64,000 nt of DNA from Escherichia coli (GCF_013122565.1 NZ_CP053258.1), one strand, 5' to 3'; positions 22,572 to 31,259 are shown, numbered from the stretch's first letter. Numbers and translations are program-made. Notes: generated by a model from the letters alone, not told the origin.

Positions 22572-22817
22572 ATGAACCACGATATCCCGCTAAAATATTT
22601 TGATATTGCCGATGAGTACGCGACCGAATGCGCAGAGCCTGTCGCAGACGCTGAACGCACACCGCTGGCCCACTACTTCCAGTTACTGCTCACCCGTTTG
22701 ATGAACAATGAAGAGATCAGCGAAGAAGCCCAACATGAAATGGCTGCTGAAGCGGGGATTAATCCCGTACGCATTGATGAGATCGCAGAGTTTTTGAATC
22801 AATGGGGTAATGAGTAA
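22572..22817 (+). CDS. ymjA: small acidic protein of unknown function
   Basis: 81-aa [22 protein letters not shown]. Confidence 0.85.
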
Positions 22818-22993: not shown

Positions 22994-23024
22994 GTTGAAC
23001 AGATGGCGACGCCATCTGTTCAAC
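22994..23024. promoter_or_regulatory. 31-nt perfect palindrome upstream of sapA (candidate operator or UTR hairpin)
   Basis: GTTGAACAGATGGCG-A-CGCCATCTGTTCAAC, 15-bp perfect arms, about 105 nt upstream of sapA ATG. Confidence 0.4.
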
Positions 23025-26611: not shown

Positions 26612-27603
26612 TGCCATTACTCGATATTCGTAACCTGACCATTGAATTTAAAACCGGGGATGAGTGGGTTAAGGCAGTTGACCGCGTAAGCATGACCTTA
26701 ACCGAAGGTGAAATCCGCGGTCTTGTTGGCGAATCCGGCTCCGGCAAAAGTTTGATTGCGAAAGCGATTTGTGGGGTGAATAAAGATAACTGGCGTGTTA
26801 CTGCTGACCGTATGCGTTTTGATGATATCGATTTGCTGCGTCTCTCCGCACGCGAACGACGCAAGCTGGTTGGTCACAACGTGTCGATGATTTTCCAGGA
26901 ACCGCAGTCGTGTCTTGATCCTTCAGAACGAGTGGGTCGCCAGTTGATGCAAAACATCCCAGCCTGGACCTATAAAGGCCGTTGGTGGCAGCGTTTTGGC
27001 TGGCGCAAACGCCGTGCCATTGAACTGCTGCACCGCGTGGGGATTAAAGATCACAAAGATGCGATGCGCAGTTTTCCCTATGAGTTGACCGAAGGTGAAT
27101 GTCAGAAAGTGATGATAGCCATTGCACTGGCGAATCAACCGCGTCTGCTGATTGCTGACGAACCGACCAACTCAATGGAGCCAACAACCCAGGCGCAAAT
27201 CTTTCGCCTGCTGACGCGTCTCAACCAAAACAGCAATACCACTATTTTGCTTATCAGCCATGACTTACAAATGCTTAGCCAATGGGCGGATAAAATTAAC
27301 GTGCTTTACTGCGGTCAAACGGTGGAAACCGCGCCGAGTAAGGAGTTGGTGACGATGCCACATCATCCTTATACCCAGGCGCTGATCCGCGCGATACCAG
27401 ACTTCGGCAGCGCGATGCCGCATAAAAGTCGCCTCAATACGTTGCCCGGCGCTATCCCACTGCTGGAACAGTTACCGATTGGTTGTCGTCTGGGGCCACG
27501 TTGCCCGTATGCACAACGAGAATGCATTGTGACGCCACGTTTGACGGGGGCGAAAAATCATCTCTATGCCTGTCATTTCCCGCTGAACATGGAGAAAGAG
27601 TGA
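26611..27603 (+). CDS. sapD: Sap ABC transporter ATPase
   Basis: 330-aa ORF; Walker A GESGSGKS. Confidence 0.95.
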
Positions 27604-27604
27604 G

Positions 27605-28411
27605 ATGATCGAAACGTTGCTTGAAGTGCGTAATTTAAGTAAAACGTTCCGCTACCGGACCGGCTGGTTTCGTCGTCAAACCGTAGAAGCGGTAAAACCC
27701 TTGAGCTTTACGCTACGTGAAGGCCAGACACTGGCGATTATCGGCGAGAATGGTTCGGGTAAATCGACGCTGGCAAAAATGCTGGCGGGAATGATAGAAC
27801 CTACCAGCGGCGAGTTATTGATTGACGATCATCCGCTGCATTTTGGCGATTATTCCTTCCGTAGTCAGCGTATTCGCATGATTTTTCAGGATCCTTCGAC
27901 CTCGTTGAATCCCCGTCAACGTATCTCGCAAATCCTGGATTTTCCACTGCGTCTGAACACCGACCTGGAACCGGAACAGCGTCGTAAACAGATTATTGAA
28001 ACGATGCGTATGGTTGGGCTGCTACCGGATCACGTCAGTTACTATCCGCATATGTTGGCCCCCGGGCAAAAACAGCGTCTGGGTCTGGCGCGCGCGCTGA
28101 TATTGCGCCCAAAAGTCATTATTGCCGATGAAGCCCTCGCCTCACTGGATATGTCGATGCGTTCGCAGTTGATTAATCTGATGCTGGAGTTACAGGAAAA
28201 ACAGGGCATTTCGTATATTTATGTTACCCAGCATATCGGAATGATGAAGCACATTAGCGACCAGGTGCTGGTGATGCATCAGGGCGAGGTTGTCGAGCGA
28301 GGCAGCACCGCGGATGTGCTGGCATCACCGCTGCATGAACTCACCAAACGGCTGATTGCCGGGCATTTTGGCGAAGCATTAACAGCGGATGCGTGGCGTA
28401 AAGATCGCTAA
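27605..28411 (+). CDS. sapF: Sap ABC transporter ATPase
   Basis: 268-aa ORF; Walker A GENGSGKST. Confidence 0.95.
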   Translation: MIETLLEVRNLSKTFRYRTGWFRRQTVEAVKPLSFTLREGQTLAIIGENGSGKSTLAKMLAGMIEPTSGELLIDDHPLHFGDYSFRSQRIRMIFQDPSTSLNPRQRISQILDFPLRLNTDLEPEQRRKQIIETMRMVGLLPDHVSYYPHMLAPGQKQRLGLARALILRPKVIIADEALASLDMSMRSQLINLMLELQEKQGISYIYVTQHIGMMKHISDQVLVMHQGEVVERGSTADVLASPLHELTKRLIAGHFGEALTADAWRKDR

Positions 28412-28438
28412 TTTTCTGAATCCTCCTTCCAGATTATC

Positions 28439-28481
28439 CACCTCATTCTGACAAGAGATTAAATCTTGTCAGAATGAGGTG
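28439..28481. other. perfect 18-bp inverted repeat / stem-loop at sapF-ycjD junction
   Basis: CACCTCATTCTGACAAGA-gattaaa-TCTTGTCAGAATGAGGTG; right arm abuts the ycjD start codon; no U-tract. Confidence 0.6.
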
Positions 28482-28832
28482 ATGGATAAAATAAAATCAA
28501 ATGCGCGTGATTTAAGACGCAATCTCACTTTACAGGAACGAAAGCTCTGGCGATATCTTCGCAGCCGACGTTTTGGTGATTTCAAATTTCGCCGTCAACA
28601 TCCGGTGGGGAGCTACATTCTCGATTTTGCTTGCTGCTCGGCGCGTGTAGTCGTTGAGCTGGATGGTGGGCAGCATGATTTGGCAGTTGCCTATGATTCC
28701 AGGCGCACTAGCTGGCTTGAGTCGCAGGGCTGGACCGTGCTGCGTTTCTGGAATAACGAGATTGATTGTAATGAGGAGACGGTGCTGGAGATTATTCTGC
28801 AGGAACTGAACCGCCGGTCACCCTCACCCTGA
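28479..28832 (+). CDS. ycjD: DUF559 protein (Vsr/restriction-endonuclease-like fold)
   Basis: 117-aa ORF MMDKIKSNARDLRRNLT; start may be GTG at 28479 or ATG at 28482. Confidence 0.85.
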   Translation: MMDKIKSNARDLRRNLTLQERKLWRYLRSRRFGDFKFRRQHPVGSYILDFACCSARVVVELDGGQHDLAVAYDSRRTSWLESQGWTVLRFWNNEIDCNEETVLEIILQELNRRSPSP

Positions 28833-29060
28833 AAGGGCGAGGGGGCCGACCGAGCCGAATAGCTGTTGTGGTGAAAACATGGAGACAGTGCTGGAGAATA
28901 TTCGGCAAGGTCTGAACCATCCCAGCCATCGCCATAAAAGGGTTAGGGGCTGTATGAGCCTGTTTGTTGCTGGGGTAACAATATTTGCACAATACGGTCC
29001 CCTCGCCCCTCTGGGGAGAGGGTTAGGGTGAGGGGAAAAGCGCCCACCCTGCCGCAGCCT
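28833..29060. repeat. degenerate copy of ycjD 3' end plus GC-rich imperfect palindromic repeats (box-C-like)
   Basis: GGAGACAGTGCTGGAGAATATTCGGCAAGGTCTGAACC about 80 percent identical to ycjD's last codons; motif copies AGGGCGAGGGG, AGGGTTAGGGG and CCCCTCGCCCCTCTGGGGAGAGGGTTAGGGTGAGGGG. Confidence 0.5.
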
Positions 29061-29199
29061 GCTCCGGTCGGACCTGGCAACTATAGCTACTCACAGCCAG
29101 GTTGATTATAATAACCGTTTATCTGTTCGTACTGTTTACTAAAACGACGAATCGCCTGATTTTCAGGCACAACAAGCATCAACAATAAGGATTAAAGCT

Positions 29200-29988
29200 A
29201 TGGGTTTTCTTTCCGGTAAGCGCATTCTGGTAACCGGTGTTGCCAGCAAACTGTCCATCGCCTACGGTATCGCTCAGGCGATGCACCGCGAAGGAGCTGA
29301 ACTGGCATTCACCTACCAGAACGACAAACTGAAAGGCCGCGTAGAAGAATTTGCCGCTCAATTGGGTTCTGACATCGTTCTGCAGTGCGATGTTGCCGAA
29401 GATGCCAGCATCGACACCATGTTCGCTGAACTGGGGAAAGTTTGGCCGAAGTTTGACGGTTTCGTACACTCTATTGGTTTTGCACCTGGCGATCAGCTGG
29501 ATGGTGACTATGTTAACGCCGTTACTCGTGAAGGCTTCAAAATTGCCCACGACATCAGCTCCTACAGCTTCGTTGCAATGGCAAAAGCTTGCCGCTCCAT
29601 GCTGAATCCGGGTTCTGCCCTGCTGACCCTTTCCTACCTTGGCGCTGAGCGCGCTATCCCGAACTACAACGTTATGGGTCTGGCAAAAGCGTCTCTGGAA
29701 GCGAACGTGCGCTATATGGCGAACGCGATGGGTCCGGAAGGTGTGCGTGTTAACGCCATCTCTGCTGGTCCGATCCGTACTCTGGCGGCCTCCGGTATCA
29801 AAGACTTCCGCAAAATGCTGGCTCATTGCGAAGCCGTTACCCCGATTCGCCGTACCGTTACTATTGAAGATGTGGGTAACTCTGCGGCATTCCTGTGCTC
29901 CGATCTATCTGCCGGTATCTCCGGTGAAGTGGTCCACGTGGACGGCGGTTTCAGCATTGCTGCAATGAACGAACTCGAGCTGAAATAA
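29200..29988 (+). CDS. fabI: enoyl-ACP reductase (NADH)
   Basis: 262-aa [31 protein letters not shown]. Confidence 0.97.
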
Positions 29989-30007
29989 TCGTTCTGTTGG
30001 TAAAGAT

Positions 30008-30040
30008 GGGCGGCGTTCTGCCGCCCGTTATCTCTGTTAT
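30008..30040 (+). terminator. probable fabI terminator
   Basis: GGGCGGC-gttct-GCCGCCC followed by a T-rich tract. Confidence 0.5.
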
Positions 30041-30131
30041 ACCTTTCTGATATTTGTTATCGCCGATCCGTCTTTCTCCCCTTCCCGCCTTGCGTCAGGA
30101 TAACGATTTCCTTTACGACCAAGGAGCGCCC

Positions 30132-31259
30132 ATGGAACAACGCCACATCACCGGCAAAAGCCACTGGTATCATGAAACGCAATCCAGTACTACGGAGTAT
30201 GACGTTCTGCCTCTGGTCCCGGAAGCCGCAAAGGTCAGCGATCCCTTTCTACTCGACGTGATCCTTGAAAAAGAAACGCTGGCCCCCTTCCTTTCATGGC
30301 TGGACCCTGCGCGTGTTCTTGCAGTGGATTTGTTCCCTGACCAGCTTACCGTGACCCGTTCACAGACCTTCACCGCTTATGAACGCTTGTCGACGGCCCT
30401 GACGGTTGCTCAGGTTTGCGGCGTCCAGCGGTTATGTAACTACTATTCGGCGCGACTTACGCCGCTCCCCGGGCCTGATTCCACCAGGGAAAGTAATCAT
30501 CGGTTGGCACAAATCACGCAATATGCCCGCCAACTGGCTAGCTCGCCTTCTATTATCGACAACCGATCGCGCCAGCATCTGAATGACGTCGGTCTTACTG
30601 CCTGGGACTGTGTGATCATTAACCAAATCATTGGTTTTATTGGCTTTCAGGCGCGGACAATTGCGACATTTCAGGCTTATCTCGGGCATCCGGTACGCTG
30701 GTTACCCGGGCTGGAGATACAAAACTACGCCGACGCGTCACTGTTTGCTGATGAATCATTACGCTGGCGAAGCAGCTATGAGGTGGAAAAACTACCTGAA
30801 GAGCACACAAAAAGTTCAACTGCAGAACTTTGCCAACTGGCCGAAATACTCTCTCTCCACCCTATTTCACTTTCCCTTCTCGAAAAGTTATTAAACAGCA
30901 CACGGGTCAATACACAGCCGGATAATCAGCTTGCGGCGTTGTTATGCGCGCGTATAAATGGCAGTCCTGCTTGTTTTGCCGCCTGTATGGATTCATCAAA
31001 TGAATATAAAAAAATCAGCCCCCTTCTGCGCAAGGGCGAAAATGAAATTAACCGATGGGCTGACCGTCATTCTGTTGAGCGCGCTACCGTTCAGGCGATA
31101 CAATGGCTGACCCGAGCACCCGATCGCTTTAGCGCCGCCCAGTTCAGCCCTTTACTCGAACACGAAAAATCATCAACGCAGATTATTAATCTGCTGGTAT
31201 GGAGCGGGCTGTGTGGCTGGATAAATCGCTTAAAAATCGCGTTGGGTGAGACATATTAA
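30132..31259 (+). CDS. yciW: putative oxidoreductase of the cysteine regulon
   Basis: Track ORF trimmed to [12 protein letters not shown] (375 aa); AGGAG SD upstream. Confidence 0.85.

Follow-up and report, generated by a model that had tools for sequence, protein, structure and literature searches.

In the insertion sequences IS10 and IS50, a control termed "fold-back inhibition" has reportedly been described (by Davis, Simons and Kleckner in 1985, and by Krebs and Reznikoff in 1986). There, only read-through RNA is said to have the segment that pairs with the start, the element's own transcript beginning downstream. In the homing endonuclease genes I-TevI, I-TevII, I-TevIII and segB of phage T4, and in mobE of phage Aeh1, RNA arriving from upstream promoters, and no other, folds into an inhibitory hairpin; the promoter of the nuclease gene itself is so positioned that the RNA it yields is too short to do so (PMC2988022). 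The left end of IS200 has a Rho-independent terminator directed against impinging transcription and, behind it, a second hairpin in which the signal for translation initiation is sequestered (PMC4513863). Here we analyze a hairpin at the 5' end of ycjD, in the spacer between sapF and ycjD, on a stretch of 64,000 nucleotides from Escherichia coli (NZ_CP053258.1, one strand; termed the window, with positions counted from its first nucleotide). We favor, at no better than even confidence, the reading that this hairpin is the core of a ycjD 5' control module, which would block translation from upstream transcripts and would also hold ycjD's own weak promoter.

The two arms of the inverted repeat, 28439-28456 (CACCTCATTCTGACAAGA) and 28464-28481 (TCTTGTCAGAATGAGGTG), have 18 nt each and are 100% complementary, and 27 nt separate the sapF stop codon (28409-28411) from the left arm. 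These coordinates bear out an earlier sequence-only reading of the window, which had described a perfect 18-bp stem with a 7-nt loop at that distance from sapF and had let the right arm end at the ycjD initiation codon: the annotated GTG start (28479-28481) forms the final 3 nt of the arm, and an in-frame ATG follows at 28482. The hairpin is real and far beyond chance. In 64 kb of the window's composition about 9e-6 inverted repeats with perfect 18-bp arms and a loop of 3-12 nt are expected, and this one is the longest perfect short-range inverted repeat that the window contains. In a 121-nt context the RNA folds at -40 kcal/mol (z = -7.4), and none of 200 shuffled sequences folded as well. 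The DNA fold reaches -19.7 kcal/mol (z = -8.6), and RNA from -50 to +9 folds at -33.6 kcal/mol, with the GTG within the stem and the ATG adjoining it. The arm is present in a single copy in the window, and the sapF-hairpin-ycjD junction is found at a median of one place per genome among 5,426 complete E. coli genomes. A covariance model built from ycjD orthologs detected no copies of the hairpin away from this locus, and an Rfam scan of 27000-30500 (E <= 10) returned generic microRNA-precursor matches alone, at 18-27 bits against gathering scores of 70-100. With one place per genome and no match to a curated model, membership of a dispersed repeat family (REP/BIME, ERIC, BoxC) or of an Rfam family was ruled out. 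The K-12 reference annotation has no feature in the sapF-ycjD spacer, and the accessible portion of the literature mentioning ycjD apparently does not address the hairpin; one paper names ycjD merely as a deletion endpoint (PMC5727448).

Like a Rho-independent terminator, the hairpin is a stable stem-loop shortly past a stop codon. Intrinsic terminators have a G+C-rich stem of about 5-14 bp and a short loop; the ycjD hairpin does have a stem with a 7-nt loop, but the stem is 18 bp long, at a G+C content of just 39%. No U-run was found 3' of the stem, where the tail reads ATGGATAAAATAAAATC, and a terminator scan gave no call at the hairpin. The term-seq tables for K-12 (PMC7815308) list no 3' end between 1,350,208 and 1,361,446, although the K-12 allele has a single mismatched pair, the sap genes may be weakly expressed and the tables are possibly incomplete. 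We ruled out an intrinsic terminator on the missing U-tract and the missing term-seq 3' end, in agreement with the sequence-only reading, which had thought a simple intrinsic terminator unlikely. The term-seq result also weakens the case for a role of the hairpin as terminator or stabilizer of sap mRNA in K-12.

In one respect the earlier reading had to be replaced. It treated the hairpin as a feature of the sapF-ycjD junction, and comparison with other genera places it instead in a conserved ycjD 5' module that is also present at other loci. Orthologs of ycjD, about 120 amino acids long and 60-68% identical, occur as solitary genes in many genera, and in about ten enterobacterial genera ycjD-type DUF559 genes carry a 5' module of about 70 nt, at three unrelated loci. 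The gene order is sapF-ycjD-fabI in E. ruysiae; ycjD directly follows hemW in Enterobacter, Lelliottia, Franconibacter, Leclercia, Pseudenterobacter and strain RIT691, lies beside yggN in the hemW-yggN region in Phytobacter and Scandinavium, and is found between a cysP-like gene and yfeX in Kluyvera and Klebsiella. With the ATG as anchor, the preceding 75 nt give a gap-free alignment over the sapF-fabI, hemW-yggN and cysP-like/yfeX loci. The ATG itself stands 7 codons ahead of a conserved A[KR]xLRR motif in all orthologs having that motif. In order, the module consists of CTGAAG...TTCCAG (hairpin 1), yTTCTGAC, a spacer of 16-17 nt, TGgCAGAGT (CAGAAT in Escherichia), 5-6 nt and the ATG, and its most conserved block across genera is the 3' arm of the hairpin under study (TGGCAGAGTG). 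Hairpin 1 has decayed in E. coli but is strong in several genera. Enterobacter, Lelliottia and RIT691 have it as a stem of terminator-like type with a T-run, and in RIT691 the scanner makes terminator-like calls on both strands.

The K-12 hemW gene (ending ...LELFLAE-stop) represents an empty site, followed by REP elements and showing no trace of the module. In RIT691 the module begins right after a hemW stop codon that matches that of K-12, and in Enterobacter and Lelliottia the module adds 2-4 hemW codons. Downstream of sapF in 77 other enterobacterial species we found neither ycjD nor the hairpin, and the covariance model detected nothing similar there; sapF is then followed by an ordinary terminator, by fabI at a distance of about 120 bp, or by unrelated inserts. 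The gap-free module at three loci and the empty K-12 hemW site argue that the hairpin belongs to ycjD and not to sapF, and the alignments identify it as hairpin 2 in a discrete ycjD unit. The idea that it is a sapF feature older than ycjD, which had been entertained because strain Nissle keeps a hairpin (see below), was overturned by the finding of the module with ycjD orthologs elsewhere. The sapF-fabI spacer is a hot spot: its length lies anywhere between about 120 bp and >2.5 kb, and different genera carry unrelated inserts there.

Conservation of the structure was assessed by covariation in 12 distinct Escherichia variants and 10 non-Escherichia orthologs, and by folding in 15 orthologs. 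Among the Escherichia variants 87% of cells pair, compared with 33-48% when the 3' partner is slid, and pair 9-35 is C-G in six sequences, U-A in the other six and unpaired in none. For the non-Escherichia orthologs the corresponding values are 79% and 34-52%, and the covariation score is 0.272 compared with 0.174 for shuffled alignments, only 1 of 500 shuffles scoring as high. Over the two sets the covariation lies above 499-500 of 500 shuffles. Folding gave a strong hairpin in 13 of 15 orthologs (z from -2.4 to -9.7). Compensatory changes in both arms, which the sequence-only reading had proposed to look for, are found within Escherichia and among the other genera. The outer stem differs in sequence by genus, and pairing is kept in each: the 5' and 3' arms read CACCTCAT and ATGAGGTG in Escherichia, CATCCC and GGGATG in Enterobacter, CGCTCCGC and GTGGAGCG in Franconibacter, and TCATCTCCC and GGGGGATGA in Scandinavium. 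A CAU in the 5' arm pairs with the whole AUG in 8 of 11 non-Escherichia orthologs.

RNAalifold recovers the inner helix with many G·U pairs; one position, for example, has nine A-U and six G-U pairs, and another has seven U·G, four U-A and two C-G. Such G·U pairs fit the sense-strand RNA only, and neither a cruciform nor an antisense transcript, so that on this comparative evidence the conserved structure is one of sense-strand RNA. The sequence of the 3' arm is far more conserved than that of the 5' arm. This suggests a second, sequence-specific role for the 3' arm.

A candidate for that role was overlooked by the sequence-only reading: the two arms contain a -35-like and an extended -10-like hexamer, as in a sigma-70 promoter. 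The -35-like CTGACA of the 5' arm is separated by 16 nt from the extended -10-like sequence of the 3' arm, TGTCAGAAT; position 28482, the A of the ATG, is exactly 7 nt past the -10-like hexamer. The prediction CTGACA-16-CAGAAT is already found in a published table. Genomic systematic evolution of ligands by exponential enrichment (SELEX) with sigma-70 (RpoD) holoenzyme gave a peak in the 67-bp ycjD/sapF spacer of K-12 W3110, to which these hexamers, identical to those of our scan, were assigned (PMC3946193). All four ycjD-bearing Escherichia variants have the 16-nt spacer, retain TGn and have the A of ATG or ATA 7 nt past the -10-like hexamer. They include an allele in which 7 of the 16 spacer positions are changed, and the loop sequence differs among alleles while the spacer stays at 16 in every ycjD-bearing Escherichia. 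In eef-type E. coli, which have lost ycjD (see below), the spacer has drifted to lengths of 9-14 nt, and CAGGAT is a frequent form of the -10-like hexamer. Across the 15 orthologs the spacer is 16-17 nt and the ATG follows the -10-like hexamer after 5-6 nt without exception (the discriminator has 6 nt, but 5 nt in RIT691), and TGn is present in 11. Readings of TGGCAGAGTG/TCTGA as sigma-54 or sigma-E elements were dropped by eye for want of the partner elements.

The start codon is ATG in 14 of the 15 orthologs, K-12 having ATA. None of the 15 has a Shine-Dalgarno sequence at a workable distance: in E. coli a GAGG lies 2 nt from the ATG, and elsewhere a GGGG abuts it. An ATG start, the lack of a usable Shine-Dalgarno sequence and the promoter-to-ATG spacing together predict that the ycjD transcript is leaderless and starts at or beside the AUG. 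Thermodynamic prediction gives a median probability of an unpaired AUG of 0.05 in read-through RNA (-75 to +30) versus 0.88 in RNA from +1; for the Escherichia alleles the ranges are 0.29-0.63 versus 0.91-0.99. The sequence-only reading had proposed that the stem-loop, in RNA, would sequester the ycjD ribosome-binding region and might attenuate read-through translation or serve in processing or protein binding. Occlusion of the initiation region in read-through RNA is supported by the covariation and by the paired AUG of most genera, but the GAGG of the right arm is unusable as a ribosome-binding site because it is only 2 nt from the ATG.

The control that we propose would work as follows. The upstream, terminator-like hairpin 1 would be the first barrier to incoming transcription. 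RNA reading through from sapF, or from hemW elsewhere, would contain both arms and would form a very stable stem, burying positions -43 to -1 and in most genera the AUG as well, so that ycjD would remain untranslated. Transcription from the internal, weak sigma-70 promoter would start at or next to the AUG and give a leaderless message. Lacking the 5' arm, and retaining no more than one or two final bases of the 3' arm, this transcript could not form the hairpin and would leave its AUG free. Since YcjD is a DUF559 endonuclease-like protein, insulation of its gene from foreign expression is plausible.

Several observations weigh against this proposal. Leaderless translation in E. coli is generally inefficient, and with ATA in place of ATG a leaderless K-12 message would have no start codon. 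The hairpin is not strong in Phytobacter and Klebsiella, and in the window the AUG is only partly occluded (probability unpaired 0.58), the occlusion covering the GTG and 43 nt upstream. Promoter-like matches of this quality are not rare, two being found against 1.8 expected per 1.8 kb. The -10-like hexamer of non-Escherichia orthologs, CAGAGT, agrees with the consensus in just 3 of 6 positions, and Enterobacter, RIT691 and Franconibacter received no promoter call from the scanner; outside Escherichia it is conservation of position only that points to a promoter. The SELEX peak in the spacer is weak (0.04 of the maximum at a cutoff of 0.02, compared with 0.42 for the fabI promoter), and its hexamers were assigned in silico (PMC3946193). 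The supplements of Adams 2021 have no entry for sapF or ycjD, and those of Cappable-seq, SMRT-Cappable-seq and promoter massively parallel reporter assay studies have none at the spacer coordinates, these tables being possibly incomplete.

Because the promoter is weak and outside Escherichia shows positional conservation only, the main rival to self-insulated expression is a constitutive repression of the IS200 type. There would then be no internal promoter; transcription would come from upstream or from between hairpins 1 and 2, a permanent hairpin in the 5' untranslated region would keep translation very low, and the TGGCAGAGTG block would be conserved for a reason at the RNA level. IS200 itself works in this manner (PMC4513863), and the conserved sense-strand structure with its G·U pairs, the fully paired AUG in most genera and the poor -10-like element outside Escherichia, with no scanner call, all fit. 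We nevertheless consider this explanation rather unlikely, for it leaves unexplained the higher conservation of the 3' arm over the 5' arm, the constant 5-6 nt to the ATG, the 16-17 nt spacer and the holoenzyme SELEX peak. Stems of -25 to -33 kcal/mol without a Shine-Dalgarno sequence would moreover make the gene nearly untranslatable, yet its open reading frame is conserved across genera. A role in the sap operon, in which the stem-loop would terminate sapABCDF mRNA without need of a U-tract or shield it from 3' exonucleases and would touch the ycjD start only incidentally, appears improbable. The position 27 nt past the sapF stop would suit it, and other genera have canonical terminators there; eef-type strains, which have no ycjD, also keep a related hairpin where sapF and eefD converge, and it shows compensatory changes and an apex complementary to itself. 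But the module also occurs upstream of ycjD orthologs far from sapF, the covariance model finds nothing similar at the sapF of the 77 other species, and neither a U-tract nor a 3' end in the K-12 term-seq tables is present. A sap 3' element may describe the role of the remnant in eef-type strains.

We give equally little credence to a site acting at the level of DNA, either an operator for a dimeric protein, possibly YcjD, or a cruciform whose extrusion would switch off the embedded promoter as supercoiling changes. A promoter controlled by a cruciform is said to have a classical synthetic example in the work of Horwitz and Loeb (1988). The Escherichia repeat is a perfect palindrome with an AT-rich center and a constant distance between arms in ycjD-bearing alleles. 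Intron endonucleases of T4 bind operators that overlap their own promoters, I-TevI repressing its own (PMC2988022). Outside Escherichia, however, the repeat is imperfect as DNA, its G·U positions becoming G·T or A·C mismatches in a cruciform, and the inner stem differs by genus with pairing kept, which points to structure rather than to a sequence-specific half-site. An operator with variable spacing had at first been rejected for the 7-13 nt range of loop lengths; that variation is confined to eef-type remnants, and so the DNA-level explanation was kept, at low probability. Least probable of all is that the hairpin has no current function and is an inherited remnant kept palindromic by template switching within quasi-palindromes. 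E. coli is well known to mutate by template-switch correction in quasi-palindromes, K-12-type alleles no longer have the ATG and carry an A·C mismatch that is not compensated, and eef-type copies persist without ycjD. Against this, the structure is kept through many different sequences over about ten genera and at 60-68% protein identity, and a mutational bias would explain neither the G·U pairing nor the fixed spacing to the ATG.

Features of the ycjD unit and its surroundings in the window
Feature	Position	Strand	Remarks
Degenerate hairpin 1 (CTGAA...TTCCAG), left part of module	28412..28438	+	starts directly after sapF stop; gap-free alignment with orthologs
Hairpin 5' arm	28439..28456	+	holds -35-like CTGACA (28448-28453); covaries with 3' arm
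Mirror-image promoter-like site	28445..28472	-	consensus scan; predicted start about 28438, towards sapF 3' end
Sigma-70-type promoter-like site CTGACA-N16-(TGT)CAGAAT	28448..28475	+	consensus scan; predicted start 28482
Hairpin loop GATTAAA, 7 nt	28457..28463	+	center of the 16-nt promoter spacer
Hairpin 3' arm	28464..28481	+	TGn 28467-28469, -10-like CAGAAT 28470-28475, 6-nt discriminator, annotated GTG 28479-28481
ycjD coding sequence from conserved ATG, 116 codons + stop	28482..28832	+	DUF559 endonuclease-like protein
GC-rich hairpin CCCTCACCCT-gaa-AGGGCGAGGG over ycjD stop codon	28821..28843	+	in 12/15 orthologs; 3' structured end of unit
GC-rich dispersed repeat GGTCCCCTCGCCCCTCTGGGGAGAGGGTTAGGGTGAGGGG	28996..29035	+	downstream of 12/15 orthologs, at three loci; right end of unit
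Right breakpoint of ycjD/eefRABCD replacement	29050..29077	.	shared fabI-upstream sequence starts here

Because the palindrome is perfect, it also contains a promoter-like site in mirror image on the minus strand, which is present in Escherichia alone. In the first 20 nt of the RNA that this site would give (minus strand, 28422-28438) there is a strong Shine-Dalgarno-like AAGGAGG, and the sole possible start codon is an AUU 9 nt downstream of it. The mirror-image promoter might relate to the "antisense" signals that have been reported at the 5' end of ycjD.

Not all E. coli carry the junction. It is present in 3,377 of the 5,426 complete genomes; the remainder, including Nissle 1917 and O157:H7, have between sapF and fabI an efflux island of about 8 kb that encodes a TetR regulator, an RND pump, an outer-membrane factor and an MFS transporter. 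The locus has been described as eefRABCD versus ycjD, with no mention of the hairpin (PMC12817139). By sensitive blastn the spacer parts shared by the two haplotypes are the end of sapF up to 28418, the hairpin arms and everything from 29077 on. Remnants of eef inside the ycjD segment, as suggested by Fig. 3 of PMC12817139, were not found by this search beyond the arms and flanks. In eef-type strains, in E. albertii and in two other Escherichia species, a related hairpin stands right after sapF and faces the convergent eefD. Its core is CACCTCATyCTGAC...GTCAGrATGAGGTG, with a variable apex that is self-complementary in every case and in many cases a G/C run; in eef-type strains it lacks 20 nt of hairpin 1 (28419-28438), and the covariance model built from orthologs recognizes it at 17-27 bits. 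The G-run and C-run of the apex differ in length by strain (CAGG-CCCCCC, CAGGG-CCCCCC, CAGGGG-AAA-CCCCC), with the look of homopolymer slippage. An anchor-based sample of metagenome contigs yielded 49 junctions, 25 of them eef-type; among those with ycjD, nine have a perfect palindrome extended to 19 bp, six are of the 18-bp window type and nine are of the K-12 type, with one A·C mismatch and ATA for ATG.

The published account holds that ycjD strains lost eef two or three times (PMC12817139). A 5' remnant of ycjD lies beside sapF in all eef-carrying Escherichia examined, which argues that the ycjD unit was there before eefRABCD. The decayed ycjD hairpin in eef strains, including E. albertii, thus qualifies the scenario in which eef was lost.

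On the plus strand the window carries sapD, sapF (27605-28411), ycjD (to 28832) and fabI (29200-29988). YcjD is a DUF559 protein (PF04480, E = 9e-49) with a homolog of known structure, PDB 3HRL, deposited as "Endonuclease-Like Protein" (E = 2e-27). Strains of the K-12 lineage have ATA at 28482-28484, where most ycjD alleles have ATG, and an uncompensated G>A in the 5' arm, and the start annotated for K-12 is the in-stem GTG. From these changes, YcjD may be poorly made or not made in K-12.

At the gene's 3' end, the ycjD stop codon falls in the loop region of the GC-rich hairpin, and the last codons form an inverted BoxC-like half-repeat. The GGTCCCCTCGCCCCTCTGGGGAGAGGGTTAGGGTGAGGGG repeat farther downstream has a median of 15 copies per E. 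coli genome, and up to 29. It probably belongs to the BoxC family, which is known as a family of 50-56 bp and 22-32 copies. Between the two, 28881-28918 repeats the ycjD 3' end directly in degenerate form, with 84% identity to 28775-28812; its translation reads NMETVLENIRQGLNHPS where YcjD has NEETVLEIILQELNRRS, and the N96 allele has a clearer second copy. The resemblance suggests that part of ycjD was duplicated in tandem or that a second DUF559 gene has decayed here. Another perfect palindrome that lacks a T-tract, GTTGAACAGATGGCG a CGCCATCTGTTCAAC, with 15-bp arms and a 1-nt loop, lies at 22994-23024, between ymjA (22572-22817) and the start of sapA (23129). The sap operon therefore has perfect palindromes on both flanks.

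The ycjD unit has recognizable edges. On the left it begins at the stop codon of the upstream gene at the sapF and hemW loci, and on the right it ends after GGGTGAGGGG at three loci; neither a target duplication nor a terminal inverted repeat was seen by eye. These discrete boundaries are so far the sole support for a formerly mobile cassette, and the unit occupies only three loci over about ten genera. It is a long shot, in our judgment, that the unit is or was an autonomous selfish cassette of a type not described before, made up of hairpin 1, the promoter-bearing hairpin 2, a leaderless DUF559/Vsr-like gene and 3' BoxC-type hairpins. It would then be a self-insulated, chromosomal counterpart of a free-standing homing endonuclease gene that inserts exactly at a host stop codon. 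On this view there may be a link between its nuclease family and the way in which BoxC-type repeats spread, like that of RAYT proteins with REP, and the palindrome would also be a candidate site for YcjD binding or autoregulation.

The 5' control module that we favor would provide an explanation for a conspicuous palindrome, unannotated before, of the E. coli K-12 lineage and its relatives. It would also give a model for the expression of a conserved gene that has no assigned function: leaderless, self-insulated and, with ATG changed to ATA, probably silent in K-12.

Among known systems, the intergenic repeats REP/BIME, ERIC and BoxC resemble the ycjD hairpin as palindromes able to fold, but the hairpin is single-copy and the BoxC-like repeat of the unit lies at the ycjD 3' end. 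IS200 has two successive inverted repeats at its 5' end, comparable to hairpins 1 and 2 of ycjD, and is likewise a single-gene unit of about 0.6-0.7 kb. Unlike the ycjD unit, which is single-copy per genome, it is multi-copy and encodes a transposase, TnpA, whose transcript starts between the hairpins, so that the second hairpin is part of the native mRNA. IS10 and IS50 differ in having ordinary leaders and ribosome-binding sites. The homing endonuclease genes of T4 share with ycjD a start-sequestering hairpin on upstream RNA, a small nuclease or nuclease-like product and the character of a solitary insert, and their own promoter corresponds to the one predicted inside the ycjD hairpin. In contrast to them, ycjD is a bacterial, chromosomal gene with a weak sigma-70-type site rather than a T4 late promoter; it has no Shine-Dalgarno sequence and is predicted to be leaderless, and its product is DUF559/Vsr-like and not of the GIY-YIG or HNH type. 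Control by the hairpin is documented for these phage genes and is predicted for ycjD. The mechanism proposed here is thus of a known kind, and it would extend a design of phage homing endonuclease genes and insertion sequences to a new setting, a solitary chromosomal DUF559 gene for a nuclease-like protein with a predicted leaderless start.

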